The translations under genes and the position numbers were made by a program. This document shows, in pieces, positions 1 to 56,310 of a DNA stretch of 64,000 bases. Source of the DNA: a virus. Each line of letters starts with the position of its first letter. Position 1 is the stretch's first letter. The stretch is from the IMG/VR virus record IMGVR_UViG_3300045988_183361. One strand, 5' to 3'. The notes below the pieces were generated by a model. The model did no database searches. It had not been told where the DNA came from and was given only the letters and a program-made list of their open reading frames with translations.

Positions 1-645
1 ATCCATATCAAAAGTTACTGTTTTGCCTTTCTTTAACTGAAATAAATCATCTCTGTCATCCCTAAATCTAAATGGGAAATAATCATAACTTTCTATTTCA
101 TTCCTGATAAGATAATCTTTATTAAGCTTAAATGGCTTATCCCATATTTCCTTTACTGTTTTTATTATCATTTTCATATCATTTATTGAAAAGGTTATAC
201 TGCCATCAAAATACTTCATCTGTTTTGTAAGATAATCTATATAGCTTTCAGGAGTATCTTTAAATAATCCTGCATTTATAGCTTCTTTAACTTCATCTAC
301 TGTAAGAGGTAGATATGTATATCGTTTTACGGCTATTATATGTGTTATTCCGGTTACTATTGCTATTACAATTACGCCTATAATAGCAAAAGCAATTAAC
401 AGCATGAAAATTACGCCAAATAGCCATATAGCACCTATGACTGTTTCTATTAAAAATATTGTAAACTTACTGCTTACATCTTCTATATATGGATTTATTT
501 CTTTTCCATTATTTATGTATGGCAATATCAGATTTCCTATAATGGCAGATAAGGCAATGTATATCATAATTGCTCCGACTAATATTACTCCTGCACACTC
601 ATCTAAAAAAACTTTCCAAAATGATTTCTTTTTCTTAAATTTCAT
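1..645 (-). CDS. multi-pass membrane protein, upstream part runs off window start
   Basis: own translation of minus strand: ATG at 643-645 preceded by AAAGGAGATAAGTT SD; frame open to position 1; hydrophobic helices. Confidence 0.5.
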   Translation of the reverse strand, partial: MKFKKKKSFWKVFLDECAGVILVGAIMIYIALSAIIGNLILPYINNGKEINPYIEDVSSKFTIFLIETVIGAIWLFGVIFMLLIAFAIIGVIVIAIVTGITHIIAVKRYTYLPLTVDEVKEAINAGLFKDTPESYIDYLTKQMKYFDGSITFSINDMKMIIKTVKEIWDKPFKLNKDYLIRNEIESYDYFPFRFRDDRDDLFQLKKGKTVTFDMD

Positions 646-648
646 AAC

Positions 649-957
649 TTATCTCCTTTTTAGTATTGGTTTATATATTTTTAAATCTATCTCTTCTGTA
701 ATAAGAAATCCATTCTTATAAGACTCCTTATACTTAAGTGACTTTAAAAATGTTATCTGCTCTTCCCTTGATAACTGCTTCTTAAAGGTAATAATCTCAT
801 CATGGCTGCAATCAGTACATTGCTCAATAAGACTATATAGAAATGACTTCTCTTTTACTCTGTCAATTAAATCAATAGTTGATTTAAACAGCATTATTAC
901 CATAAAAGTTACAATAAACGAAAGTATAATAATCTTCATAAATAGTGTAAAATCCAC
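649..957 (-). CDS. small membrane protein, paralog of 1708..2223
   Basis: ORF track; N-terminal TM helix; shares ..LY..L....S.D....F....SR.EQI.FLKS.. and a KPIL tail with 1708..2223. Confidence 0.5.
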   Translation of the reverse strand: MDFTLFMKIIILSFIVTFMVIMLFKSTIDLIDRVKEKSFLYSLIEQCTDCSHDEIITFKKQLSREEQITFLKSLKYKESYKNGFLITEEIDLKIYKPILKRR

Positions 958-1040
958 ACTATTTTATATTTAAGTAGTGTAAATGTATTAACTTAAATTA
1001 AAGAAAAATCATTATATATTATAATTTTTTTATCATATTT

Positions 1041-1316
1041 TTAATAACCGCCATGCTGTTCAATATATTTCATTAATTCGGGCGAAAATAAACACAGTCC
1101 TCTTATCCCCTGCTTATCAAGCTTCTTTTTTATCTTCTCATATTTTTGCATGTTAAGGATCTTACCGGCCTTATTTACATAGAATGAATTATCAGAAGTA
1201 AAATTATTACAGTCTGATGTAAACCATTCCCCGGATTTATCTTTAAAAATATATCCCCAATATCCGGTTCGCTGTGCTATTTCTCTTGCCTCTTTCCTTG
1301 CTTCTTTAAATGTCAT
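1041..1316 (-). CDS. hypothetical protein
   Basis: ORF track; SD TAGGAGAAAATA before ATG. Confidence 0.5.
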   Translation of the reverse strand: MTFKEARKEAREIAQRTGYWGYIFKDKSGEWFTSDCNNFTSDNSFYVNKAGKILNMQKYEKIKKKLDKQGIRGLCLFSPELMKYIEQHGGY

Positions 1317-1499
1317 TATTTTTCTCCTAAAAAAGACATATCCAAATTCTTTATATCAGCTTCATACCCATTAGGAATATTCCTTAAGGTTATATTCGTA
1401 GATATTTCTTTTAATTTTGTCTGCTGTTTTTCATCCGGATGCCGCATTGACTCAAGAAACCCAACAGCATCATTTCCTGTAAGTTTCATATAAATTCTC
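1306..1499 (-). CDS. small hypothetical protein (about 59 aa, below ORF-track cutoff)
   Basis: own translation MKLTGNDAVGFLESMRHPDEKQQTKLKEIS...; GGAGAA SD; stop overlaps next start. Confidence 0.3.
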
Positions 1500-1707
1500 C
1501 ATACTCAGTTATCATATAAAATAGTCTTTATTGTCTTTTCTTAAAAATCTGCCTTTTACCTCATTAATATCAGCCATTTAGCCCATACTGGTATGTCAGA
1601 GCTACATATTATATAAACATAAAAAGATATAATAAGAGCTATAATAATGGTTATTCCTAATGCTGGTAATATACTTTTAATTTTCTTTATTCTGTAATTT
1701 TTCTGTT

Positions 1708-2223
1708 TCATAGTTTTATCTCCTTTCTAAGGATTGGTTCATACTCTGCTAATTCTTCATCATTCTCAATTAAAGGTACTTTCTGTATTACTGTCTTGGT
1801 TGTAATAACCTTATTACCGTTCTCATCAGTGGACTCTTCCTTTTCCGTTGATTCTACAGTTGTAATAACAGACTTTAGAAAAGCAATCTGTTCATTACGG
1901 CTCATATGTCTGAATTTCTTTAAATCATCCTGTGATATATCATCAAGCAAACAATCATAAAGAAGTTCTTTTTCATGTTCTTTCTCAAAAAATTTTGTAA
2001 AAGCTATCCATACAAGAGCCATTACACTGATTAATAAGGCTATCACAGTAGCTATAAAATTTTTAAAGCTTATATTAACAAGCGCTGGCAATGCTCCCAT
2101 AAGTAAAGACATAAATGCCTTATCTATAAGAGTCATATCGTATATGTTTGCAGTCACAAAATAAAAACTAAGCATAATCAATGAAACAACAAAGACTACA
2201 TTTACTAATATAGTTATAATCAT
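1708..2223 (-). CDS. membrane protein (3-4 TM), paralog of 649..957
   Basis: ORF track; hydrophobic N-terminal half; conserved C-terminal motif shared with 649..957. Confidence 0.55.
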   Translation of the reverse strand: MIITILVNVVFVVSLIMLSFYFVTANIYDMTLIDKAFMSLLMGALPALVNISFKNFIATVIALLISVMALVWIAFTKFFEKEHEKELLYDCLLDDISQDDLKKFRHMSRNEQIAFLKSVITTVESTEKEESTDENGNKVITTKTVIQKVPLIENDEELAEYEPILRKEIKL

Positions 2224-2326
2224 CTTTCTCTTTCCTTTCTGTTTTAATATATATTGTATTGTTTATTCTATTTTATAATGTTTTAGCCAGAAAACCCATG
2301 GTCTTTAGACCGTGGAATGAATGGCG

Positions 2327-3586
2327 TTAAATTACCAAGGTCTGTATCATTTCAGTTGACCTTGCCATTATGCGTTTACAATTACTCAATTTAGGTGTCT
2401 TGTATCCTTTTGGCATTGCCGAAAAATCAACCTTGTTACCATCTATATCCATGAGAACTGCATATCCAGTGGACATTCTACCCTTGATAAAATATTTGTT
2501 TCCAAAGTATCGAACTTTGTCAAATTTTCTAAAGCCACAAATCTTATCAGTGATAATAGGCTGTTCTGAACGAATCCCTTTTGTTTTTTGAAAATCACCA
2601 TCTGAAATGCATTTCTTTTTGTAAAGGTTGGATTTTACAGTAAATATATTGCCTTGTGTTGCAATCGTACAGGCATCATAATAATGTTCTTTGTCAATGC
2701 CAAGAAGCAAACGGTTAGCTTTTGTCACATATCCGAAGGTCTCAACTGCATCTGGATATAATTTAAAAAGCTGTTTACGAATAGAGTTCATCTGTGTGGC
2801 ATATTTAAGATTACCTTTAACTTTACCACTCAATTTGGGGTTAATTTTTCCACTATGTAAATCTTTATGACAGGTATGACACAGAGTAATTAGATTACTT
2901 TCTTCATCAGAACCCCCCTGACTACGAAATAAAATATGATGAACTTCTAACTTACTATCCTTATGTTTGCCTTTACAATATTGACAAGTATAATTATCTC
3001 GATTAAGAACCATCGCTTTGGTATTCTCAAACCCATAATTAATACCTTTCTGATAACCCCAATGTTTAATTTTAGGATTAGCAAGATTTGGATTTTTCAT
3101 AAGGTGAGTATCAAACTGACCTGTCTCAAATACCATTTCTGTAATCGGAAGAATAAATTTAATATATTTTATCTCTTTAACATGACTATGAAGCTTACTC
3201 TGCATCGTAGGGCTAAATCTATCATTCTTAATAGAATTAGCACGATTTAACCATCTTGCTTTTCTATAACGAGCTTTACGATTTCGTCTGTTTCTACGAT
3301 ACTTTGCTCTTTGTGTCATTTTGCCGGTAATGTCGTTTCTTATAACAACTTCCGACATATAGATAATATCTCCATTGTCTTTGCTTACAGAAGTGCCAAT
3401 AGTTCCGCTTCCGGTATCTACACCAAGAGTTAAGTCTTGAGTGTAATTTGTTGTTTCATAAGTCAATTTAATTGTAAATGGCTCACGTTTCTTAACTTTT
3501 GCTTTGCTTTGTTTAAGTAACAATCTTGCTATAGAGTTACTACAGGGCATTAGTGGTTTACCATCTTGTGAAATCACATAAACCAT
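2327..3586 (-). CDS. iscB: IscB RNA-guided nuclease (PLMP, RuvC-I, Arg-rich bridge helix, RuvC-II, HNH, RuvC-III)
   Basis: motifs read from translation: DGKPLMP; LGVDTGSGTIG; RAKYRRNRRNRKARYRKARW; FETGQFD; CQYC..HHI..N..LCHTCH; HYYDA; strong SD AAGGAGG. Confidence 0.85.
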   Translation of the reverse strand: MVYVISQDGKPLMPCSNSIARLLLKQSKAKVKKREPFTIKLTYETTNYTQDLTLGVDTGSGTIGTSVSKDNGDIIYMSEVVIRNDITGKMTQRAKYRRNRRNRKARYRKARWLNRANSIKNDRFSPTMQSKLHSHVKEIKYIKFILPITEMVFETGQFDTHLMKNPNLANPKIKHWGYQKGINYGFENTKAMVLNRDNYTCQYCKGKHKDSKLEVHHILFRSQGGSDEESNLITLCHTCHKDLHSGKINPKLSGKVKGNLKYATQMNSIRKQLFKLYPDAVETFGYVTKANRLLLGIDKEHYYDACTIATQGNIFTVKSNLYKKKCISDGDFQKTKGIRSEQPIITDKICGFRKFDKVRYFGNKYFIKGRMSTGYAVLMDIDGNKVDFSAMPKGYKTPKLSNCKRIMARSTEMIQTLVI

Positions 3587-3858
3587 AAATAAGTTCCTCC
3601 TTATAAATACTCTACTTAATAGTAGGTGATGCGTACTTTGTCGTACTGTTTACCATACGATTGTTCCGACTTCAACTCGACAATGATATAAAGGCTTTTA
3701 TGTACATATCACAAGGCTGTTCTTACTCTGACCTAACTTAAATATGTACGATAGAGCAACGGTCTGTTGCGTCAACCGAAGGTATCATAACCTAAATATC
3801 GTAGTATCCATTTCTGAATACTTAGTCTGGTGAACCATTTAACAGAAGCCCACTACCT
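3587..3858 (-). ncRNA. putative omega-RNA (guide-RNA scaffold) of the IscB element
   Basis: 272-nt non-coding stretch immediately 5' of iscB on the same strand, clearly GC-richer than its surroundings, multiple stable hairpins; matches the known IscB locus architecture. Confidence 0.5.
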
Positions 3859-4800
3859 TTAGGTGGTGGGTAGTTCACTTAATTCACCTGATTCTTTGTT
3901 AAATATAAATATATCTGAACTCAGATAATCTTCTTCTTCCTGAATACCAAATATCTTTAATGCCATTTGAATTTCTTCAGGAGTAAATTCATTGTATTTA
4001 CATATCAACAGAATATGTGCTGTAACAGGAACAATGTATAAATTTGTTTTCAGTTTCTCTGAAATATTCTTAAGCAAATTATTATTCAGAATTGCACTTG
4101 TGTTATAAAAGTCAATTATATTTTGAATTGCATATATTCCTTTAATACATTTGCTCTCAAACCCATCAGAATTACTTAGAGAAAATAATTCTTTCTTTGT
4201 TTTTTCATAATTATCATCATCTGCCAGTTGCGTCAAAAAATAATCACCTAATACACTGATAAAATATTTGTTGGAATATATTGAATGAATTGCAAGATTG
4301 TACAATTCGTTTTCATCAATTTTCAGTATGTCTCTCATATAGTTATTATCAATTACAAACATTGTACCTTCTGAATTTTCTTTAGGTATGATCACATTAT
4401 AAATTATTTCGAACTCATAAAATGGCCTATGAGGAATACCGCTTAAATCTTCCATATTGTCCGGCTTTTGTATTAATTGAGGTATAATATAGTGTTTTAT
4501 ATCATTTAAATTAATTTCTGGAGCTAAATTATTAAGTTTATATTCACTACCATTAGAATTTTTGTTTCTATAAAATGCTTCAGATATTGACAATGCAATT
4601 TCTTCTATTGACGAATTATTTAAATATTGTTTATATAATTGATTTAATTTAAATTCTAAGGGACACATAAACTGATTTTTAGAATGAAAAATAAGCTTAT
4701 CTGATGTGCAAACTATATCTGTTGGTGTAATATCTTCAATATTTTGAAGTAATTCGAATTTAAGATGTTTAAGAAAATCTTCGTAATTCATTTTTTGCAT
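3859..4800 (-). CDS. hypothetical protein
   Basis: ORF track; SD AAAGGAGAATTAATTAT; TGTCATAT box at 4837-4852. Confidence 0.6.
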   Translation of the reverse strand: MQKMNYEDFLKHLKFELLQNIEDITPTDIVCTSDKLIFHSKNQFMCPLEFKLNQLYKQYLNNSSIEEIALSISEAFYRNKNSNGSEYKLNNLAPEINLNDIKHYIIPQLIQKPDNMEDLSGIPHRPFYEFEIIYNVIIPKENSEGTMFVIDNNYMRDILKIDENELYNLAIHSIYSNKYFISVLGDYFLTQLADDDNYEKTKKELFSLSNSDGFESKCIKGIYAIQNIIDFYNTSAILNNNLLKNISEKLKTNLYIVPVTAHILLICKYNEFTPEEIQMALKIFGIQEEEDYLSSDIFIFNKESGELSELPTT

Positions 4801-4836
4801 ATAATTAATTCTCCTTTTATTTAGTTATATTTTTAA

Positions 4837-4852
4837 TATGACAGAAAAAATG
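4837..4852 (-). promoter_or_regulatory. TTTTTCTGTCATAT box (putative promoter core) for 3859..4800
   Basis: conserved box about 37 nt upstream of ATG, preceded by an AT hairpin and U-run. Confidence 0.5.
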
Positions 4853-4997
4853 AATTATTATTTTACATAAAATAATTGATGTGTGTTAAAATAAGACAGC
4901 AACTAAATGTAAATGCCTTTTATTTATTAAAATATCCCGTTTTTGTGTTTTTCTAAGCACTTTATTGGGTATACTATGCCTTCACTTGTAAAAAATA

Positions 4998-5373
4998 ATA
5001 ACAATATATTGTACGTTTATTGTTATATATTAGTTTAATATGTTAACTTTATTAACAATATATAGTTATTTAAGATTTATTAAAATATAGCTAAGATACA
5101 AAAATAATAACAATATATAGATATAAAATATGATTTAATATACATTAAAAATAACAACATTATGTTATAGAATAGAAAAATTTGTGTAATAAAATTAACA
5201 ATATATAGCTAAATATTTGATACATAAATGTAATAATGATAACAATATATAGTAATGTATTATCCGTTGCATAGCCAATAAAATGCCTTATATGTGTCAG
5301 AATAATACCATGATGTAGTTATCATATGCTGATTTAAGAGATAAAAAATGTTAATTTGATAACATATAATTGG
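4998..5373. repeat. iteron-like array: at least 5 direct copies of (A/T)TAACAATATATAG plus degenerate copies
   Basis: copies at about 4998, 5051, 5105, 5194, 5239 and variants at 5151 and 5358; spacing 45-55 bp; inside a 1.3-kb gene-free AT-rich region. Confidence 0.5.
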
Positions 5374-6081
5374 TAATATTAGCAATTATATATGGATTAA
5401 TTGGGTACAATAGACTGTATGATCAGTGAGAAAAATAAATATAACTGATTAATGGGATATAATTATTATTTACTAAAGTTAATTAATGGAATTACTGGAA
5501 ACATATATAGGAATGATAGAGTAAAGGAAATAGATCTAAGAGCAAATAAGAAAGAATTAGTGTATAAGAATGCAGCTATTGGAGATAGAAATGGGATTAT
5601 TGGGCTTACTAAGGCATTTGCAGGGCGAAGAATAGATTTACAGGAATCTAGTAATCATAATTTTTGTAATTATCATATATTATATATGAGGGAATTATAT
5701 TATTTATTAGTGTATTAAAGGCATTAATTGGGATAAATGAAGTGCTTGCTAGAGACAGGTAAGGAATTACCAGGGAAATAAACACAAAATGTATTAAGCT
5801 GATAAATGATATTGTATAAGGATATGACAATAATAGTTATACGCTTTTAATCCTTAATAATATTCTGGCGGTTATTATATTAAGTCTTAAAACGCTATTA
5901 AGGAATAATCAAATGTATTATATAAGGCTCTAATTTTTATATTTTAATAATAAAAAGCGTATCAATGGAAAAGAAAATAATAAAAAGGTTCTAAAAAAGG
6001 TGTATGACATATTACACTTAAAGGAAGTGTAATCATAAAAAAAATACAGCTACCTATTGATAACTGCATTTTATTTATATA

Positions 6082-7110
6082 TTACATAAAAGATTGTATA
6101 CTATATCCTTTCCGTCTGAAACGAACTCTAATCTTTTTTATTGCTTTTGATTCAATCTGTCTGATTCGTTCTCTGGATACATTCCATTCAGTACCTATAT
6201 CTTGTAAAGTTTTAACTTTTGAGCCATATCCCATTCTACCCTTAATTACATATAATTCTCTAGGAGTGAGACAATCTTCAACTTCTTTCCAAAGCAGTTC
6301 TTTCATTTCTTTTTGAATAATCGTATCTTCAACTTTAGGTTCAGGAGCTTCTATATAATCAGCCAAACATGAATCGTCATGGCCTTCATCACTTTGAATA
6401 GGTGCATCTAATGAAACCAATTCATTAAAACTCTGAATATGCACAAGCATTTCTTTAGTTAAAAGAGGATATCTTTGTTTTACTACATCATATAATTCAT
6501 CAATTGTAGGTTTTCTTTGAAGTTTATTAGTTAAATCCACAAATGTAGTCTTAACAAAAGAATCCTGTTCTCTTACATGTACAGGGAATCTAACTAATAA
6601 ATCATAATTGGCTAATTCTCTATATATACTCTGTCTAATCCAATGAGTTGCATAAGTTGAAAATGCATATCCTAATTTATAATCAAACATTTGTATAGCT
6701 CTGTATAACCCGAAAATACCGGCCTGACATAAATCATCCATTTCAAAACTTTGCGTTTTAGCTGTAACAGCTTTAGCAATACTGATGACTAAACGCATAT
6801 TAGATAAAATCAATTTTTCGGTTATTTCTTTTTTCTTTTTAGGATGTTTTTTTATCTCTTCAAATAATTTAAGAGTTTCATCTTTGGATAAAACCGGATA
6901 ATCAGCGAATGATTTAATATAATAAGTTATATTATTTTCTAATAATAGTTTCTCTTTTTCATTTAAAATCTCTTTATCATTTAAAATATCGGTATAATTA
7001 TCCTCTGATAAAATATTTATGTTTTCTATTGGTTTATTTGTATCAAATAATTCATCAATATATTCATCTTTATTGTTTTTTTTATTTAATAATAAATTCT
7101 TATCTGCCAT
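6082..7110 (-). CDS. sigma-70 family RNA polymerase sigma factor (regions 2 and 4 present)
   Basis: region 2-like YAFSTYATHWIRQSI; region 4.2 HTH LQDIGTEWNVSRERIRQIESKAIKKIR. Confidence 0.85.
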   Translation of the reverse strand: MADKNLLLNKKNNKDEYIDELFDTNKPIENINILSEDNYTDILNDKEILNEKEKLLLENNITYYIKSFADYPVLSKDETLKLFEEIKKHPKKKKEITEKLILSNMRLVISIAKAVTAKTQSFEMDDLCQAGIFGLYRAIQMFDYKLGYAFSTYATHWIRQSIYRELANYDLLVRFPVHVREQDSFVKTTFVDLTNKLQRKPTIDELYDVVKQRYPLLTKEMLVHIQSFNELVSLDAPIQSDEGHDDSCLADYIEAPEPKVEDTIIQKEMKELLWKEVEDCLTPRELYVIKGRMGYGSKVKTLQDIGTEWNVSRERIRQIESKAIKKIRVRFRRKGYSIQSFM

Positions 7111-7122
7111 AAAAATCTCCTC

Positions 7123-7518
7123 TTAACATTGATGTCCTAGCATTTTTAATTCATTATTTGCTTCTATTTTCATTGTACATATTCTACTAATTGCATTATA
7201 TGTAAATTTAGATTGCTCTTCAAAGGTTCCTAATATATCTCGTTTAATCATAAGCTCTTTACATTTATCTGAAGACTCTTTGTGTAATTTCATTTCTTTT
7301 ACCATTGAATCTAAAATAGAATGCATTGAGGAAAAATAGGTAAAATAATTTCCTACTTCACTCAATAAATTTCCTATTTCCAATAAATCTATTTCATCTG
7401 ATCTAGGAATTTCTTTCTTAAAATTAATTAAATACCATTCATATAAATCCGTTGAAGAAGCTTCAAGGATATCACTTATAGACTTATTTTTTAATTCATT
7501 ATTCATATTTGTTTCCAT
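7123..7518 (-). CDS. hypothetical protein, co-transcribed between CPBP protease and sigma factor
   Basis: ORF track; tight spacing to flanking genes. Confidence 0.5.
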   Translation of the reverse strand: METNMNNELKNKSISDILEASSTDLYEWYLINFKKEIPRSDEIDLLEIGNLLSEVGNYFTYFSSMHSILDSMVKEMKLHKESSDKCKELMIKRDILGTFEEQSKFTYNAISRICTMKIEANNELKMLGHQC

Positions 7519-7521
7519 AAA

Positions 7522-8433
7522 TTATTGCTCCTTAATTTCTATATTGATATTTTCAAAACACTTAATTACAAAATAAATTAAACTCATTATGCAGACTATT
7601 AAAATGCATACCTGTAAATATATATTTGTTATAAAAAACGTAAATGGTATTAATGCCACACAGTTTATTAGAATATGATATAAGCTGCTAAGTTTAATAC
7701 CATATTTATCTCTTACAGCACCTAACAAATATCCGCCAAAAGCATATATAGGGAATAAAATAAAATTAAAATGAATTATTCCAAATAAAACTGCTTGGAT
7801 TATATTTGCACATAATTTATTGTTGCTTGCTTTATATGCATAGCCATAAATTATATATCTAAAAGTCAATTCCTCAATAATAGGTGCCACAAAAGTTGCT
7901 ATTATTGTAGATATAATTGTTTTTATTCCTAAACTTCCATAATCAATATCTGATACATTTACAAAATGCATTTGAATTCCTGAAATAAGCTGCAATATTA
8001 CAGAAATTAATATGAAACAAAATGCAAAATTCCAATTTACTACTAATTTATTTTTCATAAACAAATCTTTTTTATAATTGTAAAATGAGCTTTTTATACA
8101 AATAAGGCACATAACAAACATTAATGTATATGTTGATATTGTGTAAATTAATCGAAATCCTTCATAATCTATTTTAGTTGAAATTCCTCCTGCATCATTC
8201 ATATACATATTTAATAGACTGTCTATAAATGTTGCAATAAACATTGAAAATAAAATTATAAAAACAGAAATAATAAATGGAATAAAAATCTTTATATACT
8301 GTTTTGATTTTGAAAAGAAAGAATTACTTTTCATTTTGTTTTTCACCATAAAATCCATATAAGAATTTAAATCATGCTTATTTTTTTTATTTCTTAATTC
8401 CTTAATATTACTGTTATTGTTACTAAGTATCAT
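7522..8433 (-). CDS. CPBP-family (CAAX/Abi) intramembrane metalloprotease
   Basis: multi-TM; IIEELTFRYIIYGY (EExxxR) and FGIIHFNF (FxxxH) motifs. Confidence 0.7.
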   Translation of the reverse strand: MILSNNNSNIKELRNKKNKHDLNSYMDFMVKNKMKSNSFFSKSKQYIKIFIPFIISVFIILFSMFIATFIDSLLNMYMNDAGGISTKIDYEGFRLIYTISTYTLMFVMCLICIKSSFYNYKKDLFMKNKLVVNWNFAFCFILISVILQLISGIQMHFVNVSDIDYGSLGIKTIISTIIATFVAPIIEELTFRYIIYGYAYKASNNKLCANIIQAVLFGIIHFNFILFPIYAFGGYLLGAVRDKYGIKLSSLYHILINCVALIPFTFFITNIYLQVCILIVCIMSLIYFVIKCFENINIEIKEQ

Positions 8434-8545: not shown

Positions 8546-10231
8546 TTAGCATTTGCGTACTATTGAAGGTGCTGACATATCAGGGTTAATGAATTTCTTG
8601 CATAAATGTTCAATTCCGGTTGTTGAATCAAGCCAATATAAATAATCCCCGTCATTATCTACCAGATATTCATTAATAGAATCAAGAACATCGTTTACTT
8701 CGGAAACAGTACATATAAATCTGTATGAAGACTTATTTTTCTTTAAAGGTTTAACAGACTTAACAATAATCTGATATACAGTTTCGTCATCTGAAGATCT
8801 AAAATCATCTACTTGAATTTTTCCTGATAAACATAATTTAGCATCATTAACAAGTAAGTCTCTAATATTTGCATAATCTTTAGAAAAACATACACCATTA
8901 ATAGAACCTGTTTTATCTTCTACCTCAAAAGTTACCCATTCGTATCCATTTCTATCCTTTCTTACAACAAGATTTTTAATTATACCAGATACATCGTTAA
9001 CTTCTGTTGAAATATCAGAAATGGGATCTGTATAAATATTATACTCATCAATTGGATGCCCTGTAATATAAACACCTAACACTTCTTTTTCATCATTTAG
9101 AATCTGACCTAAATCATCTTCTACATAATCAATATCTATATTTTCAAGATCATCTTCTAAGCTTTCTATAACTGTCTTAGCTGAATTGATACGTTTAATT
9201 ATGGAATCCTTAGTTGGCATCTTTTTTGAAGTAACTTGAAAGGAAATATTTTCTTCTGAAATTCTTTCCTTAAACTCATCAAGATCAATATAATCTTCCA
9301 CAAATTCAATAACTTTACTTGCGTTTTCAATAAACTTACTCTTCTCTCTGATTTTCTTAATTGTATCCTGAATTTCTTTCATACAAATCATATCTAATGA
9401 TATCATTGTTCTTGTATAACCAAGGCAATCGAAAGCACCTGCTTTAATTAAGGAACTTAATGCTTCTGCATTAATATTTGTTCGTTTGATAAAATCCTTA
9501 ATATCAGAATATTCTCCATTAACATTTCTATCTTCAATAATTTTAGCTGCTTCTGATCCAACATTCTTAATATTACTCAGACCATACAAAATGTTCCCAT
9601 CTACAACATCACAATGTAAATTTGAAGCATTAATGTCCGGAGGCAATACCTTTACTCCAAAATCAAGGGCATCACTAATATCATCAGCGACTTCATCAAT
9701 CTTATCAGTATGATTTATTACATTTGTAAGATAATAAGCCGGATAATAATACTTAAGAAAAGCAGTCCAATATGATGTAACAGCATAAGCAGTAGCATGT
9801 GACTTATTAAACGCATACTTAGCAAAGTCAACCATCGCATCCCAGATTTTATGAGCAATTTCTTCTGATATTCCATTTGCAATACAACCTGGTACTAATG
9901 CTTCATTTTCTTTTTTAGTATCAGCATTACCATATACAAAAGTGTGTCTTTCAGCATCAATCTCATCCTGATGTTTTTTTGACATAGCTCTACGGACTAA
10001 ATCAGAACGCCCCCATGTATATCCTGCTAAATCACGAACAATCTGCATTACCTGTTCCTGATAAACTATCTGTCCATAAGTAGTTGACAAAATTGGCTCT
10101 AATTGAGGACATAAATATTTAATCTTAGATGCATCCTTTTTACCTTCTATGAAATCAGGTATAAACTTTTCAGGACCAGGACGATATAAAGCATTCATTG
10201 CTATTAAATCTTCAATACCTGTTTTATTCAT
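8546..10231 (-). CDS. dnaE: DNA polymerase III alpha (DnaE-type), C-terminal part as an independent gene
   Basis: NALYRPGP, YGQIVYQEQVMQIV, fingers/OB-like regions; own TGTCATAA box, SD AAAGGAGAAA and ATG. Confidence 0.85.
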   Translation of the reverse strand: MNKTGIEDLIAMNALYRPGPEKFIPDFIEGKKDASKIKYLCPQLEPILSTTYGQIVYQEQVMQIVRDLAGYTWGRSDLVRRAMSKKHQDEIDAERHTFVYGNADTKKENEALVPGCIANGISEEIAHKIWDAMVDFAKYAFNKSHATAYAVTSYWTAFLKYYYPAYYLTNVINHTDKIDEVADDISDALDFGVKVLPPDINASNLHCDVVDGNILYGLSNIKNVGSEAAKIIEDRNVNGEYSDIKDFIKRTNINAEALSSLIKAGAFDCLGYTRTMISLDMICMKEIQDTIKKIREKSKFIENASKVIEFVEDYIDLDEFKERISEENISFQVTSKKMPTKDSIIKRINSAKTVIESLEDDLENIDIDYVEDDLGQILNDEKEVLGVYITGHPIDEYNIYTDPISDISTEVNDVSGIIKNLVVRKDRNGYEWVTFEVEDKTGSINGVCFSKDYANIRDLLVNDAKLCLSGKIQVDDFRSSDDETVYQIIVKSVKPLKKNKSSYRFICTVSEVNDVLDSINEYLVDNDGDYLYWLDSTTGIEHLCKKFINPDMSAPSIVRKC

Positions 10232-15780: not shown

Positions 15781-16539
15781 CTATGAGCATAACTTCTTAA
15801 GGTTATTTCTCATACCGGCTGACTCAAACTGGAAAACATTCTTAGTTCTTCCTTTTGCATATACTTCTTTGTATACCTTATCAGCTTTAGGACCCTCTAA
15901 TGGAATATTCATTACATCAATTACTTCTCCTGTATCTCTCTGAATCATTCTGAGTGTGTCAGTAATAATTGTAAGAGTTTTTAATCCAAGAAAATCCATT
16001 TTTAATAATCCATTAGCTTCGCACTGAATCATGTCCATTTCTGTAGTTTTAATTCCCTTTTTTCCATCTCTAATAGGAATATAATCAGTAACATCATTAC
16101 TATCATAAATAATAACACCTGCGGCATGTTGTGCGTATGTCGTAAGCATACCTTCACAATGAGCTGCAATATTAAGAATAGAAATAGCATCTGGATTACT
16201 ATTATATTCATCCTTTAAGAAATCTAACAAAGAAATGCTGTCCTGAATATTAATGCCTAATTCATCAACCTTATTAGTATCTTTCATGCCAACAATATCT
16301 TCAAAATTAGTTGCTTTAGCAGGCACTTTCTTACGAATCTGATCTCCTAAAGATAAGAATTTCTTTTCATCATCATAAGCTTTCTTTCCATAATATCTTG
16401 CAGCATCTCTGATAGCACCTTTAGCCTGCTGTCTTGATTCTGTAATAATTCCAACAACAGCTTCACTACCATATTTAGCTCTTACATACTCAATTGTCTT
16501 TTCTCTTACTCCAAGAGCAAGATCACTATCGATATCCAA
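15781..16539 (-). CDS. dnaE: DnaE-type Pol III alpha, middle segment (exon 2 / palm-thumb)
   Basis: begins DIDSDLA (the PDxD DID.DF catalytic motif), ends FQFESAGMRNNLKKL; followed by its own terminator. Confidence 0.8.
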   Translation of the reverse strand: MDIDSDLALGVREKTIEYVRAKYGSEAVVGIITESRQQAKGAIRDAARYYGKKAYDDEKKFLSLGDQIRKKVPAKATNFEDIVGMKDTNKVDELGINIQDSISLLDFLKDEYNSNPDAISILNIAAHCEGMLTTYAQHAAGVIIYDSNDVTDYIPIRDGKKGIKTTEMDMIQCEANGLLKMDFLGLKTLTIITDTLRMIQRDTGEVIDVMNIPLEGPKADKVYKEVYAKGRTKNVFQFESAGMRNNLKKLCS

Positions 16540-17477
16540 ATATACCCCTACTTTCGTAGTACTTTAACACTTGTATAAGTGGGATTAGACTATATCTCAA
16601 TATAATATTGTTAATATTATATTTCAACGCACTTCCAACTGTAACCATTCTCAGTTGTACTCCTTAAAAAGGATAGTCGTTACACTTTAAAATAAATAAT
16701 ATTATATACGAACAATTTTTAAGTCATTCCATTTTAAATATTTATGCATTGAGGAATAACTTGCGTTATATTTTTCTTTAGCATATCGAGCTGCTGCTAA
16801 TATGCTTTCAAATCTATCAATTAATATATCTCCTTTATATAATTTACAACACTTATAATTTCTTACAGGAGACATAGTTTTATAACTATCATATAAATTG
16901 TCTTTTCTAGTACACCATTCTAAATTATTCACCTTACAATTTTGTTTATTTTTGTCTTTATGATTAACTTCTGGTAGATTATAAGGATTAGGAATAAAAT
17001 TCATCGCAACTAATCGATGCAATAAAAATTTTTTATTATCTAATCTTATCATCCTGTAATTCTTTTTACTATCTAAAAAAGGTTTAAGTTGTCGAATTTT
17101 CCCTTGTTTTATACTAAAAATCTTTCCATATGAAGTTATGTAATATTCGTGGTGATTTTTAATTTCTACTATTTTTTCACCTTTTTCAAGGAATGATGTA
17201 AAATTGATATAATCTATCATAAATATACACCTCCTTATTTATATAATATTATTTATAATCTTAGCACGGTATCGCCTGCTATCCTTCAATATCTTTTATA
17301 TAAAAATACGAGGACCGTAGGTTCTCTTACGAAGCTGCTTCGTCTATGGGTTAAGCTATATATCCTGTTGTGACACTTTATATAGCAGTCTTATTCAACT
17401 TCTACCGTTAGCACTTAATAATAAAATATTAAGCACACCTCTGAGTTAGAGTCCACGCTGAACGCCCAATATATTTA
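16540..17477 (-). ncRNA. group I intron interrupting dnaE, with HNH homing-endonuclease ORF
   Basis: about 940 nt inserted exactly between ..ERVSMP and DIDSD.. of the DnaE active site; GC-richer structured flanks at 17221-17477 and 16540-16701 around an internal ORF with its own SD. Confidence 0.6.
16702..17220 (-). CDS. HNH homing endonuclease (intron-encoded)
   Basis: NHKDKNKQNCKVNNLEWCTRKDN HNH-type motif; SD AAGGAGGTG; sits inside the intron. Confidence 0.8.
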   Translation of the reverse strand: MIDYINFTSFLEKGEKIVEIKNHHEYYITSYGKIFSIKQGKIRQLKPFLDSKKNYRMIRLDNKKFLLHRLVAMNFIPNPYNLPEVNHKDKNKQNCKVNNLEWCTRKDNLYDSYKTMSPVRNYKCCKLYKGDILIDRFESILAAARYAKEKYNASYSSMHKYLKWNDLKIVRI

Positions 17478-19270
17478 GGCATACTTACTCTTTCTGGATT
17501 TAAGAATCGTTCAAAAATCAGATTATACTTAAATGGATCAATTCCGGTAATACCAAGTAAATATGTAACCAATGAACCGGCACCTGAACCTCTTCCAATG
17601 CCTATTCCAATTCCGGTATTATAATTGTGAGTCTTAACATACTCTTTTGCACCTTCAATTGTTAAAGGTACTTCTGATAGTTTATCCATAGGCACTAATC
17701 CACAAATTCTTCCATATTCCAGAAAGTCCTTTACAATTAAATGATAATCGGCAAAGCCCATCTGAATGATAATATTAAGTTCGTATTCCATTCGTTTCTG
17801 ATGTTCTTCATCCCATCCTTTTCCGTTAGGATATCTCCAATTAATTCCCTTAATTGCTTCAGATCTTAATAATTCGTTTGAGTCCTTGTTCTTATCAAAT
17901 ACTGGATAATGATTAGATTTTTCTGGAATATAAGCACATCTTTTTCCAATTACATTTAAGTTATTGAGTGCTTCTGCAACCTGATCATCTGTTAATATAG
18001 CTGATAAGGCCTGAGCAAGTTCGTAAGGTGTTTTTACATATAACTCTTTATCTGATTCCGACTCACTTATCTTAATAAATCTTAAAAATTTAGCTACATT
18101 ACGCATATCAATACTTCTATCAGAATTATCTGCCATATGTGCATCATTAGCAGCAACTAATGGGATATTATGCTTCCTTGCTAACTGAGCTAACACAGGA
18201 TATGTTCTGCTTTCCATTTCAAGCCCATGATTCTGAACTTCAATGTAATAATTACCTGCTCCAAAAATTTCCTGATAAAAAAGCATTGTCTTTTCTGCTT
18301 CAGACATTAATTCTATTGGGCTTTTCTTTAATGATTCATAATGCTGTATCTTATTTTCATGATTAATATATTCCTCTACTTTAAGACTTATATCCTTTAA
18401 CTCGGCTTTCTTAGCATTAACTAATTTTCTGACATTAGGAATTTTATCTTTAGCTTCCAGAATTTTATTATTTATCTCCTCATATTCGTTAATCAGTTTA
18501 ATAAGCTCTGGATCATCATCATTTAAACACTTTCTTGCATCTCTTAATTTTCTTGAAATCTGTGTTCTTTCTGATTTAAGTTCCTTGGAATCACGAATAT
18601 TAATCAATTCATCTAAATCTGCCGATACCCTTTCAAATTCATCTTTAGCTGAAAGATATTCTTTATCATCAGGACTTATACAATCACGTATAACTAGCTC
18701 GTCTTTTTCAGTAGTATGCTGCTGTGCTTTTCTTTCTCTGTTAATCATTTTATCCAAAACATCATCTGATAATAATTGCAGAGCTGGTGCACCCGAAACG
18801 CAAGCAGAAGTTGCTATTATATCACCGTTAAAGTTATATTTCTTTAAATCTGATATTGTAATAACAGGCTTTCCCATTCTTTTTTCAGAAGCCTTAGAAT
18901 TTAACTTATCAATAATATGCTTGCCTCTTTCTGAAGTGGCTAACATAATCATATGGCCAATCTGCTCATTTATCTTAAATGGTGGCACTTCAATATAAGC
19001 CTCTACGCCATAAATGATATTAAAAGGATGTTCCTCAGTACTTATTTTCTTAGCGTAATCAATACATGTTTGCATTGCTGAAAATGATGCATGGTCCGTA
19101 ACAGCAAATTTAGTATATCCTGCATTAAATGCAGCATCTAAATAACTTTTAGGTTCATCTACGGCATCAAACAAAGAGCCTCCTGGATGGTTATGTTCAC
19201 ACACTGTAACTCCTGACTCAATAACCTTTTTTGTTAATTCTCCAATTTTTACATGTTCAAACATTGACAT
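17429..19270 (-). CDS. dnaE: DnaE-type Pol III alpha, N-terminal PHP + palm segment (exon 1; coding part probably ends near 17478, remainder is intron read-through)
   Basis: PHP motifs [20 protein letters not shown]; palm [34 protein letters not shown]. Confidence 0.85.
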
Positions 19271-21964: not shown

Positions 21965-23314
21965 ATGGACATAAAATCAAGCTATGCAGTTGAAGTTAAG
22001 AATATTAACAAATTGTTCAATCCAACAATTAAAATTTATAATCAGGCTGTAACTTTTTGCATCCAGGTGTTTGAAAATGAGTGGTCTGTATTAAAAGATA
22101 TTAATGACTCAAAAATACAATGTGGTGTTGCAAGGAACTTAATTCATTCTACAAAGTCAAATAAAGCTAAGTATTCAGAGTTTGATAAATTGTTCCACAA
22201 AATGCCCAGCTATTGTACTACAGCAGTCATCAATGCATCTCTCGGTGTACTTAATTCTTATCATTCAAACTTACAGAACTGGTATGATGAAGGCTGCAAA
22301 GGTAATCGTCCTACATTGCAGATTCATACCAATAAATATCCAGTCTTTTATAAAGACAACATGTATAAGTGGGCTGATACAAAAAATGCCATACTGCTCA
22401 AGCTTTTTATAAACAATGACTGGCAGTGGGTAAAGCTGCGCTTAAAACATACTGATGTGCAAAGTATTAAAAAGCACAGTATCAATGCAAAAATTTCTGT
22501 GCCTACATTAGAGAAAAAGCATAAGAAATGGTTTCTGCGATTTGCGTTTGAAAGCAAAGCAATTTTAAATAAGACACCATTATCTAAGCAGAGAATCCTA
22601 GCCGTTGATCTGGGTATTAACACAGATGCTATCTGTTCAGTTATGGATTATTATGGAACTGTCCTTGCAAGATGTTTTATCAATCATGCAAGTGAAAAAG
22701 ACTATATTAAACATAATCTAAACAGGATAAAAAAGTATCAGGCTGCAGGGCAAAAAGATGTGGTCCGGAAGTTATGGAGTTTAGTTAAGAATTACAATAA
22801 TGAGCTTGCGTCAAAAACTGCTAATGCCATAGTGGATTATGCCAGACAATTAAATGTCGATGTTATAGTATTTGAACATCTGGATATGAAAGGCAGGAAG
22901 AGAGGATCCAAGCGCCAGTTATTACACATGTGGAATAAGAATACTATACAGAGAATTGTCACTCATAAGGCTCATTTATCAGGTATCCGCATCAGTCATA
23001 TATGTGCAAGGAACACAAGTAAGTTAGCATATGACGGTTCAGGATATGTACTAAGAGGAAAAGACGCAGGATTGCTTACATATGAACTTTGCAGATTCCA
23101 GACTGGCAAAATATATAACTGTGATTTATCTGCATCTTATAATATAGGAGCCAGATATTTTATTCGTGAAATCGAGAAATTATATACAGGGAAATCCATA
23201 TGTAAAAAAATAAACATATGGTCTGATATCCAGGCGAAAGTACCTGAATGTCAAAGAAGAACACAAAATACCCTTTCAACACTAAGAGCTATACATCAAT
23301 GTTTAGCAGTTTAG
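21965..23314 (+). CDS. tnpB: TnpB (OMEGA RuvC-like RNA-guided nuclease)
   Basis: RILAVDLGINTDA (RuvC-I), VIVFEHLDMKG (RuvC-II E), Cys zinc-finger, NCDLSASYNIGARYF (RuvC-III). Confidence 0.85.
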   Translation: MDIKSSYAVEVKNINKLFNPTIKIYNQAVTFCIQVFENEWSVLKDINDSKIQCGVARNLIHSTKSNKAKYSEFDKLFHKMPSYCTTAVINASLGVLNSYHSNLQNWYDEGCKGNRPTLQIHTNKYPVFYKDNMYKWADTKNAILLKLFINNDWQWVKLRLKHTDVQSIKKHSINAKISVPTLEKKHKKWFLRFAFESKAILNKTPLSKQRILAVDLGINTDAICSVMDYYGTVLARCFINHASEKDYIKHNLNRIKKYQAAGQKDVVRKLWSLVKNYNNELASKTANAIVDYARQLNVDVIVFEHLDMKGRKRGSKRQLLHMWNKNTIQRIVTHKAHLSGIRISHICARNTSKLAYDGSGYVLRGKDAGLLTYELCRFQTGKIYNCDLSASYNIGARYFIREIEKLYTGKSICKKINIWSDIQAKVPECQRRTQNTLSTLRAIHQCLAV

Positions 23315-38533: not shown

Positions 38534-39628
38534 TTACTCATCAATTACATTTTTTATATTTTTTTCAATAAAGGGTGAAATGTCGTCTTCTCCCTTAAGT
38601 CTTTTTCTGATTAAAGTTTCTAATTTATCTTTATATTCCGAGTGCTCTTCTATATATAATTTAGCATTTGCTCTGCCCTGCCATCTTAAACTAGAATCTT
38701 CTGCATCTGTAAACCAAGCTCCAGTTTTATTGATAAATCCATGTTCAACAGCTAAATCAATTATTTCACCATTCTTGTCTATACCTTTACCAAATGAAAT
38801 TTCAAATGTTGCCTCCTTAAATGGAGGAGCTATTTTATTTTTAACTACCTTTGCTTTTGTTCTGTTAGCAACAATAGCTCCGCCTTCCTTAATTGACTCA
38901 ATTCTTCGTACATCAATTCTTACAGAAGAGTAAAACTTTAATGCTCGTCCCCCAGTTGTTGTTTCTGGGTTGCCAAACATAATTCCAACCTTTTCTCTTA
39001 ACTGATTAATAAAAATAACTGAACAATTACTTTTACTTACAACGGGAGTCAGTTTCCTTAAAGCCTGCGACATAAGTCTTGCTTGTAATCCAACATGTGA
39101 ATCCCCCATTTCTCCATCAATTTCTGCCTTAGGTACAAGAGCTGCTACAGAATCTATTACAACCAAATCTAAAGCTCCGGATCTTACCATTGTTTCTGCT
39201 ATTTCTAAAGCCTGTTCTCCGCTGTCTGGCTGTGAAATATATAAATTATTTATATCCACACCTAAATTAGAAGCATAAACAGGGTCTAATGCATGTTCAG
39301 CATCAATAAACCCGGCAATTCCACCATTTTTTTGTATTTCTGCAATCATATGCAAGGTTAAAGTTGTTTTACCACTTGATTCCGGGCCAAATACTTCTAT
39401 AATTCTTCCTTTTGGAATTCCTCCGCCTAAAGCCTGATCCAGTGCTAAGGAACCTGATGAAAATGTTTCAACATTTAATTTCTTTGTATCACCTAATTTA
39501 AAGACAGAACCTTTGCCATAGGTCTTTTCAATTTCTAACATTGCAGCATCAAGTGCTTTTAATTTGTCATTTGAAATTGATTCGTTACCCTGTGTTTCGG
39601 TATTAATATTCTTTGGTGGTCTTCCCAT
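38534..39628 (-). CDS. recA: RecA recombinase
   Basis: [32 protein letters not shown] and downstream RecA core motifs. Confidence 0.9.
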
Positions 39629-53603: not shown

Positions 53604-53984
53604 TTAATCTGGATTATATGGATATTCTATAAAGAATTCATATTCCGGATTGTCGCTCATTAAGCGGGCAATATTTTCTGCTTTGGATACATAATATGTA
53701 TGTCTGTTATCCAACCCATCCTTTTCATTAAGCATTTCGCACTTAGCTCGTGTAACAATCTTATGAAACTGATTCCCGGATAAATCTACAATTATTTCGT
53801 TATCTCTATAGAAATAATCAATATTCTTTTTTTCAAGAATTTTGTTAATATAAGGAATTAATTCTTCTTTTGCCTTCTTAAAATGTCTCATATATAAGAC
53901 TCCCTTCTTGGAGTTATTCTCCATTAAATTTATTGATAAAAAATATATGACAGAAAAAACAGTATATGTTAAAGATTTATCCAA
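53604..53984 (-). CDS. hypothetical protein
   Basis: ORF track. Confidence 0.5.
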
Positions 53985-56310
53985 ACTGTTGTCTTTTTAT
54001 TAAAATATTATTATATATTTCATCCCAGTATTTATTTATAGCATCAATTTCTTGTTGATCAGTTAATGCGTTCTTATCGATAATAACATCATCAAGACTT
54101 TTTATAACAGTATTAGCAGTTTTATAATCTGAAATATTAGTATTCTCAGCTTCTTTTAAAGCATCATATGCTTTTTTGTAACAAAAACTGGCCTTTTCAT
54201 AATTAGGAAAATCGATTTGAAAAAAATCTTTTTTACCAGAATTATAATTACATTTTTTCCCTTCCCAGTCAATATAATGCTCATAAATAGTTTCAGGTTT
54301 CTCAAATTCCTTATTATCTAAATTCTGGTGCAAATATTCATTAAACTGCTTCCATATTTCTCCACATATTGCTGAACCATTATCAAAATTTTTAGGAATA
54401 TCATATCCGGTCCATATACATGTTGTGTAATATGGTGTATATGCACATAGCCAAGAGTCCTTGTTATCATTCGTTGTTCCAGTTTTTCCTGCACAAATCT
54501 GATTATCTATTTGATAATTTTTGACGTATCCTTCTGTAAAATTTGAAATTAAACAATCTGTCATCATATAAGCGGTGCCTTTTTTATATACTTGAATATC
54601 TTCTTTATTTTGATATATTTCTTCATTTTGACGCAACATATGTTTGATGCATGTATTATTATTGTATTTACCATTATTAGCTAATGCATTGTATGCTTTA
54701 GTCATGTTTTCTACTGTTACACCATTTGTAAAACCACCTATGGCAATTGCAGCATTATTATTATCTTCATATGAAATATTATAAAAGTGCATTTTATTTA
54801 AATACTCTAAACAATTATTTATTCCAACATTCATTAATGTTTTAACAGCCGTTGTATTGACTGATTGTAATAAAGCTGTTCTTACTGAAATATTGCCTCT
54901 GTAATATCCATCATGATTTTTAGGCTGATATTTACCCTCAAGTGGAGAATCCAAAATCATAGATGATGGATGATAGTCTAAAATATCAAAAGCCGGAGCA
55001 TAATCTAATATTGGTTTAATGGAAGAGCCTGGTTGTCTAGGAGATTGATATGCTCTATTTATATATTCATTATCTTCTTGTCCACCTATAATTGCTCTAA
55101 CATATCCAGTTTCATTATCAATACACATGGATGATGTTTGAAGAAGATGCCGCCCATCCTCGGATAAGCTGTTATCATATTGTGATAAAACATTTTTTGA
55201 AATTTGTAATAGCTCAAGCTGCTTATCTTTATCTATTGAAGTATATATCCTGTATCCTCCAGTTAATATTTCTTCTTTGTACTTAGAGTATATTTTATTA
55301 TATTGATTAATATAATCTTGCTCATCTTCTGAAGAATCAAAAAGGTATTTAAAATTAAATCCATTTATTTCCATAAGATATTCAATAGAACATTTAAGTG
55401 TATATGAAAATTCATAAGATGTTGGTAAATCAGATGTTTCTTTATATAAAATTAAATCAAGAGGATCTTCTAATGCTTCATTGTATTGTTTTTCTGTAAT
55501 TATTTTCTGATTATACATTGTATTAAGGACTTGATTTCTTTTACATATTGCTAATTCATAATTTGTTTCAGGATTATATTTTGTAGGGGCATTTGAAATA
55601 CCTATTAACATTGCGGCCTGAGATATTGTTACATCAGATGCATCACATCCAAAATAATATTTACAAGCTGCCTGAATTCCGTAACAATTGCTGCCGTAGA
55701 AATTAGAGTTTAAATACATTTCAAGTATTTGTTCTTTAGAATATGACTTTTCCATTTCAAGTGATGCTATCATTTCAGTAAGTTTTCTATCTATTGTTTT
55801 GTCTGAATTTTTTATAACAATATTTTTTACAACTTGTTGTGTGATTGTACTGCCGCCCTGAGTTATTTTCCCTTTATTCTTTATATAAGCCAAAGAAGCT
55901 CGTAACAATGCTTTAGCATCAATACCTTTATGAATATAGAAATTCTTATCTTCCACAGCAATATATCCTTGTATTATATAATCACTGACATCGCTGATAT
56001 TAACATATTCATAAGAGCCGTTAATATTAGCTGCCATTAATGTGCCATCATCATAATAAAAATATGTATTCAGTTCTTTATTAAATTCATTTTGGTTCAT
56101 ATTTTGTAATGACTCATATGCATTTTCCTGTGCCAATTTGAATTTACTGTAAAATTTAATATAAAATACTGATAATGATATTAAAGATAATAATATGACT
56201 ATCATAATAATCAATATAAAAATTTTAAATATGGTTAAAAGATGATTTTTCTGTTTTTTTAGTGGAATATTTTTATCATCATTATAAAGTGGTTGTTTTT
56301 TAGAACTCAT
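53977..56310 (-). CDS. class A penicillin-binding protein (GT51 transglycosylase + transpeptidase)
   Basis: N-terminal [14 protein letters not shown] (GT51), [11 protein letters not shown] (SxxK), KTGTT (KTG). Confidence 0.8.

Follow-up and report, generated by a model that had tools for sequence, protein, structure and literature searches.

In the window, the 64,000-nucleotide stretch of IMG/VR virus record IMGVR_UViG_3300045988_183361 analysed here, a 1602-bp mobile element made of an omega-RNA scaffold and an iscB gene sits in the last codons of a DUF5688 gene. Comparison with natural alleles that lack the element fixes its ends to the base and exposes, at the uninterrupted site, a match to the predicted guide beside the predicted adjacent motif. 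The best overall explanation, which we consider quite probable, is that of a non-autonomous IscB element whose guide-directed cutting of empty alleles would lead to its retention or homing. The element itself is an ordinary, intact IscB OMEGA insertion sequence, a new example of an already known type. The features on which the argument turns are as follows.

2277..3878, minus strand: whole mobile element, IS200/IS605 family, IscB type, non-autonomous; 1602 bp; contains the omega-RNA scaffold and iscB only
2327..3586, minus strand: iscB open reading frame, 419 amino acids; Pfam RRXRR and HNH, PDB IscB matches
3596..3602, minus strand: Shine-Dalgarno sequence AAGGAGG, 9 nt 5' of the iscB ATG, read from the sequence
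3612..3878, minus strand: predicted omega-RNA scaffold, ~267 nt; HEARO match 3665-3878 plus covarying helices at 3641-3660 and 3612-3625
3879..3894, minus strand: predicted guide-encoding flank, outside the element; GAATCAGGTGAATTAA; abuts HEARO model position 1 and also forms DUF5688 codons
3859..4800, minus strand: upstream DUF5688 gene, co-oriented with iscB; Pfam DUF5688 3e-28, residues 32-302; chimeric 3' end
2272..2276: candidate transposon-adjacent motif (TAM); ATAAA on the iscB (minus) strand, 3' of the target in the empty allele; TTTAT on the plus strand
3874..3878, plus strand (presumed top strand): candidate transposon-encoded motif (TEM) TTCAC at the right-end boundary; same as the wild-type ISGst TEM (PMC10055086)
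3849..3870: right-end subterminal imperfect hairpin, CCCACCACC TAAA GGTAGTGGG; also an omega-RNA stem-loop
2296..2315: left-end subterminal imperfect hairpin, CCACGGTCT AA AGACCATGG; followed by a 19-nt tail, 2277-2295

Boundaries, insertion site and transposase

Two IMG/VR contigs, L025 and L026, whose flanks are ~97% identical to the window, carry the empty site and read ...GAATCAGGTGAATTAA|ATAAAATAGAATAAAC... across it. At the same site the window reads ...GAATCAGGTGAATTAA|GTGAAC...AACATT|ATAAAATAGAATAAAC..., with 1602 bp sitting at the bar. The boundaries 2277..3878 are therefore exact, and they replace the span 2270-3858 given by a first-pass annotation of the sequence. The filled and empty alleles show no target-site duplication and leave no positional ambiguity in the element's ends. 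The 5' base of the element (GTGAAC, window 3878) is also the point at which shared homology starts in eight close copies from assemblies assigned to Lachnospira, Blautia, Anaerostipes hadrus, Phoenicibacter, Oscillospiraceae and others (68-87% nucleotide identity).

The architecture is that of the IS200/IS605 family: the filled/empty comparison reveals neither terminal inverted repeats nor a target-site duplication, each end carries a subterminal imperfect hairpin, and the insertion lies 3' of a TAM with a related TEM at the right end. Both terminal hairpins have a four-base loop and pair best on the plus strand, where the left-end one is fully paired (fold z-scores -2.67 at the left end and -2.4 at the right). 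The right-end hairpin varies in a compensatory manner among relatives (CCACAGACC/GGTCTGTGG and CCTCTAGG/CCTAGAGG), and on the plus strand the element's right end finishes GTAGTTCAC. ATAAA occupies the TAM position in 12/12 related copies with 11 distinct 3' flanks (L013 and L014 share one). It follows the 19-nt post-hairpin tail on the iscB strand, a tail that is 1 nt longer in copy L036. From these flanks we infer that the TAM of the window element is ATAAA/TTTAT.

Some of the copies differ in their ends or flanks. In the viral copies L029, L033 and L035 (IMG/VR), the hairpin 3' of iscB seems arm-swapped relative to the stop, with CCATGGTCTTTAGACCGTG replacing CCACGGTCTAAAGACCATGG; L034 and L036, also viral, have the same ends and are shorter (1446-1498 bp), with different interiors. 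L013 (binned as Phoenicibacter) and L014 (binned as Anaerostipes hadrus) have an identical downstream flank and different upstream (guide) flanks, a pattern that might be due to a larger composite unit, to rearrangement on one side or to an error in binning. Among the PLSDB plasmids, blastn with the element as query gave no more than a 43-nt match.

The element had been described as inserted between two phage genes without disrupting them. Rather, it interrupts the DUF5688 gene in its final codons: the first omega-RNA base, 3878, falls 20 nt within that gene, and the protein's C-terminus changes from ...ESGELNKIE* in the empty allele to ...ESGELSELPTT* in the filled one. The insertion thus swapped the last four residues (NKIE) for six that the element encodes (SELPTT). 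The six new codons and the stop originate in the first omega-RNA hairpin, the loop of which supplies the TAA. The altered tail probably does no harm, as the Pfam match stops short of it, at residue 302 of 313.

What the 1602-bp element lacks, compared with a full member of the family, is the Y1 (HUH) transposase TnpA. No tnpA lies inside it, none was recorded within 10 kb in ten contigs, and a Pfam scan of 81 window open reading frames found none. The earlier description of the element as a non-autonomous one unaccompanied by tnpA therefore stands for the element, but not for the whole window: with a relative's TnpA as query, tblastn detected part of a Y1 transposase, its C-terminal half, at 63772-64000, where the window stops within the gene; contig ERZ28664398 scaffold_110 has the full gene. 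This fragment is part of a second OMEGA-type element (62384-64000, minus strand), which belongs to a different IS605 and contains the following gene.

62487-63782, minus strand: TnpB, 431 amino acids; Pfam OrfB_IS605 and Cas12f1-like TNB; partial tnpA directly upstream

The right end of this TnpB element (62384-62413) likewise finishes GTAGTTCAC. In a related 327-kb contig, L005, we also observed a polymorphic ~1.8 kb tnpA-tnpB insertion, an autonomous IS605, at ~16352-18146; it is missing from the otherwise near-identical contigs L001 and L002, its right end again finishes GTAGTTCAC, and its left junction could be located only approximately. Because the tnpA/TnpB elements in the window and in L005 share this right end with the IscB element, mobilisation of the latter in trans by a resident TnpA is plausible. 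Autonomous forms occur among the bacterial relatives: in L011, L012 and L016, metagenome genomes of Lachnospira, Blautia and Eubacteriales, a 134-aa Y1_Tnp (Pfam 4e-32) overlaps the 3' end of iscB. These copies share 82-86% nucleotide identity with the window element across omega-RNA and iscB and have the same 5' end, GTGAAC; unlike the window element, they carry the transposase. About 98% of iscB loci are without their own tnpA (PMC10055086).

The nuclease, its omega-RNA and the guide

The 419-aa protein has the full IscB domain order, as the first-pass annotation had read it. Pfam RRXRR, the IscB N-terminal/RuvC family, matches residues 2-181 over the full profile (3.5e-53), and Pfam HNH matches residues 201-245 (4.2e-12). 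The best PDB sequence matches are to OgeuIscB (7utn and 7xht, ~4e-40 by phmmer), and HfmIscB aligns over residues 3-403. The protein combines a PLMP motif (residues 11-14) with a split RuvC domain, in which RuvC-I contributes D57 (GVDTG), RuvC-II E154 (FETGQ) and RuvC-III H301/D304, and with an Arg-rich bridge helix, RRNRRNRKARYRKAR, at 97-111. Between RuvC-II and RuvC-III lies the HNH domain, with H216/H217 and two CxxC pairs. A loss of catalytic residues, which would have spoken against the first-pass reading, was looked for in the alignment: D57, E154, H216/H217 and H301/D304 align with the catalytic residues of OgeuIscB (D61, E193, H247-H248 and the RuvC-III His-Asp), and all are present. 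The protein is an IscB, predicted from its sequence to cut double-stranded DNA in an RNA-guided, TAM-dependent manner.

OgeuIscB shares this domain order and a HEARO-type omega-RNA with the window system, and the window flank ATAAAA fits its published NWRRNA TAM. It differs in length (496 aa versus 419 aa), the alignment being split into two stretches, and in the motif, which among the related copies of the window element is ATAAA with a free sixth position.

An omega-RNA directly 5' of iscB on the same strand, also proposed earlier, is strongly supported. The Rfam family HEARO (RF02033), now known as the IscB omega-RNA family, matches 3665..3878 on the minus strand from end to end at 109.8 bits (E = 5e-23), above its gathering score of 83 bits, and this is the sole Rfam match in the 64 kb. 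We aligned 12 copies from bacterial and phage-like contigs, from the first base of the element to the iscB start codon. The consensus fold comprises 69 pairs, with 98.3% of cells paired, and compensatory double changes occur at 30/69 pairs, whereas sliding the partners by 1-3 columns leaves 2-7 and shuffling 9.6. Past the Rfam match lie three further helices, the last two of them at 3641-3660 and 3612-3625; these covary as well, so the scaffold extends to ~3612. The 272-nt gap between open reading frames (3587-3858), in which the RNA was originally placed, is indeed non-coding, structured and richer in GC (0.365-0.39 versus ~0.26 in the flanks). The scaffold, however, starts at 3878, beyond the gap, and overlaps the upstream gene.

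This start moves the guide. IscB takes its guide from sequence beyond the transposon boundary, on the 5' side of the scaffold (Meers et al., PMC10055086), and with a length of 16 nt, assumed by analogy with OgeuIscB, the predicted guide is 3894-3879 (GAATCAGGTGAATTAA), outside the element. A candidate guide near 3858, suggested in the first-pass annotation, was rejected: the sequence there lies inside the first omega-RNA scaffold hairpin. The DUF5688 gene, directly behind which the element lies, is likely the source of read-through transcription for the guide. A scan for terminators around the element found 0.

The closest parallels are the Geobacillus ISGst elements, which have the TAM TTTAT or TTCAT and the TEM TTCAC, TTTAT having been experimentally defined in ISGst2 (Meers et al. 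2023, PMC10055086). In these elements the IscB scaffold derives from the right end, and since they depend on transcription coming in from outside, the genes upstream tend to share their orientation (PMC10055086). The ISGst elements, including the IscB-encoding ISGst5, have the same order of a guide outside the boundary, a right-end-derived scaffold and then iscB; they share the TEM TTCAC, a TTTAT/TTCAT-type TAM, subterminal hairpins and the absence of a target duplication, and they too are mostly without their own tnpA and lie behind co-oriented genes. They reside on a bacterial chromosome, whereas the window element lies on a huge phage-like genome.

The first-pass annotation rightly placed the IscB on a phage-like genome, but this carriage is not new. 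Clostridium phage c-st, a 186-kb cultured phage (NC_007581), encodes in CST143 a distant IscB homologue (42% identity over 309 aa) with HEARO directly upstream at 140 bits and a truncated tnpA downstream; the gene is annotated only as 'HNH endonuclease', as are most IscB homologues in the 59 GenBank phage records that contain one. A model for homing has been published as well.

Filled and empty alleles and the role of the element

The retention/homing model is established for IscB and TnpB (PMC10055086), and for homing between co-resident replicons there is a demonstration with TnpB on plasmids and an explicit prediction for phages (PMC13565253). Applied to this locus, the model begins with an insertion beside TTTAT within the last codons of the co-oriented DUF5688 gene; this original insertion, and any further transposition, would need a Y1 TnpA in trans. 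Read-through from the DUF5688 gene would give an RNA whose 5' part (3894-3879) serves as guide and whose remainder forms the scaffold, and IscB with this RNA would cut DNA in which a guide match is followed by ATAAA. The filled allele would be spared, because the element parts the target from ATAAA and leaves no cuttable arrangement. An empty allele, with exact target and motif, may arise by TnpA-mediated excision, which would leave the donor joint TTTAT|TTAATTCACC, or may enter with a co-infecting, element-less relative. If a filled copy then served as recombination partner in repairing the break, the element would be restored or spread, and the replicon's own RecA and Holliday-junction resolvase would be available for this repair. 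RNA-guided homing, one of the roles suggested at the outset, is thus plausible, in that the exact 16-nt target and its TAM occur together in natural empty alleles. Selfish retention or homing through guide-directed cutting of empty alleles is the most likely role.

The two alleles are found side by side in human-gut sequence. Human-gut assemblies contain >211 contigs that encode exactly this IscB, the longest reaching ~700 kb (650-700 kb), and in 10/10 places shown for it the context is DUF5688-IscB. We scanned 241 million metagenome records with one degenerate pattern fitting both alleles. In phage context it matched five empty alleles and two filled ones, and ten further matches were unrelated. 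With the two from IMG/VR, seven natural empty alleles carry a perfect target and ATAAA. Movement within the lineage is also evident: in a related 478-kb contig (L054, ERZ4567432; 3001-4260), a 98%-identical IscB element occupies a different site, with its own guide AGGTATACATAAGGAT and the flank ATAAAC, so the element has moved within the phage lineage. A TnpB gene lies ~2.5 kb from this copy on the opposite strand.

The same scan bears on whether the nuclease has been domesticated to attack host or other foreign DNA, be it in defence or in taking over the host; nothing specific speaks for this reading. The ten matches outside the phage context are unrelated, apparently largely non-gut contigs, one of them a TARA scaffold, in line with chance for an AT-rich 21-mer. 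In the window the guide has one further near-match only, which has two mismatches and is followed by TGATA instead of ATAAA. Targeting of host or competitor DNA beyond the phage's own empty allele, which the first-pass annotation had raised, thus gained no target in the window or in the 241 million records. The guide, moreover, is merely the flank of the insertion site, and the transposon ends have been kept intact; we regard domestication as very improbable.

A different use of the same cut would be as a weapon between phages, in which cleavage of empty-allele relatives destroys or excludes co-infecting competitors (localized marker exclusion) to the benefit of the carrier phage. The coexistence of both alleles in human-gut metagenomes and the perfect conservation of target and TAM in 7/7 empty alleles would suit such a role, and the concept has been described for phage homing endonucleases and OMEGA systems (PMC13565253). 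Co-infection by the two types, however, is without evidence, a phage-encoded RecA favours repair and conversion over loss, and sequence alone cannot separate weapon from homing. We consider the weapon decidedly unlikely as the element's main role.

Several observations weigh against retention or homing by guide-directed cutting. The sampled filled alleles are almost clonal (0-10 single-nucleotide polymorphisms in 7.3 kb) and the empty alleles lie on backgrounds 2-7% diverged, so that vertical inheritance and homing cannot be told apart: the distribution of alleles fits a single old, vertically inherited insertion as well as it fits homing. The sole filled allele on another haplotype, L048, holds only ~140 nt of the element. 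Promoter-like sites are not in excess in the upstream sequence (27 versus 22.9 expected), so production of the omega-RNA rests on assumed read-through; expression of this RNA, its ends and the cleavage are predictions, and the guide length and TAM were deduced from flanks rather than measured. Within the phage lineage there is no sign of constraint on iscB, two phage-borne copies differing by 11 nt at a ratio of nonsynonymous to synonymous substitution (dN/dS) of ~1.1, a value based on small numbers. The 64-kb window contains no virion structural or packaging genes, its PHROG matches being to DNA metabolism only, and the phage label is only probable because it is based on IMG/VR membership and these PHROG matches.

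Flank haplotypes were considered as evidence for homing or co-conversion and proved unusable, the filled alleles being near-clonal and the lone divergent one truncated or chimeric. In that allele (L048, OLNY01028678.1, 1754 bp), a filled-type junction on a different left-flank haplotype is followed by unrelated sequence after ~140 nt of omega-RNA; it may be a truncated remnant or an assembly chimera.

The single near-clonal haplotype of filled alleles, the missing upstream promoter signal and the dN/dS of ~1.1 between the phage-borne copies would all be expected of an inert passenger, inserted once through a host or phage TnpA and inherited vertically, with IscB and its RNA unexpressed or without effect in infection. 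Against this, the open reading frame, catalytic residues, Shine-Dalgarno sequence and RNA structure are all intact, an identical protein is present on the >211 contigs, and the element lies co-oriented directly behind a gene, like active IscB elements. We judge an inert passenger unlikely. Retention or homing remains the reading we prefer, and it is favoured by strong purifying selection on iscB, whose dN/dS is ~0.08 when the gene is set against six copies from different contexts, including at least one bacterial chromosome.

In a bolder form of homing, the element would work as a natural, RNA-guided gene drive between huge gut phages during co-infection: IscB would cut the DUF5688 3' end of element-less relatives and RecA would copy the element across with no transposase; we offer this tentatively, as a possibility. 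The nearest precedent is the TnpB-driven IS605 gene drive (Mears et al. 2025, cited in PMC13565253): the behaviour predicted for the window element is the same, with a guide-directed cut of the orthologous empty site on a co-resident replicon and TnpA-free copying of the element. That system was shown experimentally with TnpB on plasmids (PMC13565253), whereas the present case concerns IscB on a phage and is a prediction. For 'non-restorative homing', TnpB on plasmids is so far the only demonstrated case (PMC13565253), and we found in the literature no demonstration of phage-to-phage IscB homing and no report of this phage lineage.

The replicon and its mobile elements

The element resides in a phage-like replicon of very large size and low GC that comes from the human gut and is probably a phage. 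The window has ~27% GC, and nearly all of its genes are on one strand; the sole large plus-strand gene in this 64-kb minus-strand run (21965-23314) encodes a 449-aa protein without a Pfam or PHROG match. The window encodes a split DnaE, two UvrD-type helicases, RecJ, FEN, a primase, RecA, a resolvase (PHROG) and methyltransferases, as well as HNH/NUMOD4 endonucleases, Lar, a probable class-A penicillin-binding protein, and GGDEF and HD-GYP-like proteins. The RecA/penicillin-binding protein/GGDEF/HD-GYP cargo is unusual for a phage and typical of very large mobile replicons. Related contigs of 95-103 kb are listed in IMG/VR, and when window 1-8000 was compared by megablast with 50,697 GenBank phages there was no match; by this measure the replicon has no close cultured relative.

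Some of these genes deserve separate mention. DNA polymerase III alpha is split into two minus-strand genes ~7 kb apart, at 8546-10231 and 17429-19270. The N-terminal part has PHP and NTPase domains and the C-terminal part finger, HHH and OB domains, and between the two genes lie FEN, an RlaP-like nucleotidyltransferase and others. RecA (38534-39628) is full (1.8e-137). A probable class-A penicillin-binding protein, a GGDEF cyclase and an HD-GYP-like phosphodiesterase are encoded at 53977-56310, 56589-57722 and 57863-59077, respectively; the first call is based on transglycosylase and transpeptidase matches among the scanned open reading frames and on the alignment of 53977-56310 to an annotated mtgA.

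These observations bear on how such elements live in phage genomes. AT-rich huge phage genomes have been colonised repeatedly by IS605-family elements from Firmicutes hosts; the evidence includes IscB at two sites, TnpB in the window, and a polymorphic tnpA-tnpB insertion in a relative. The locus described here adds no new kind of system; what it contributes is a filled and an empty allele, resolved to the base, from a natural population of phages. With both alleles of one phage locus coexisting in gut metagenomes, and with guide, TAM and boundaries placed to the base, it offers a clean natural test bed for the published proposal that OMEGA nucleases act as programmable homing endonucleases between co-resident replicons.

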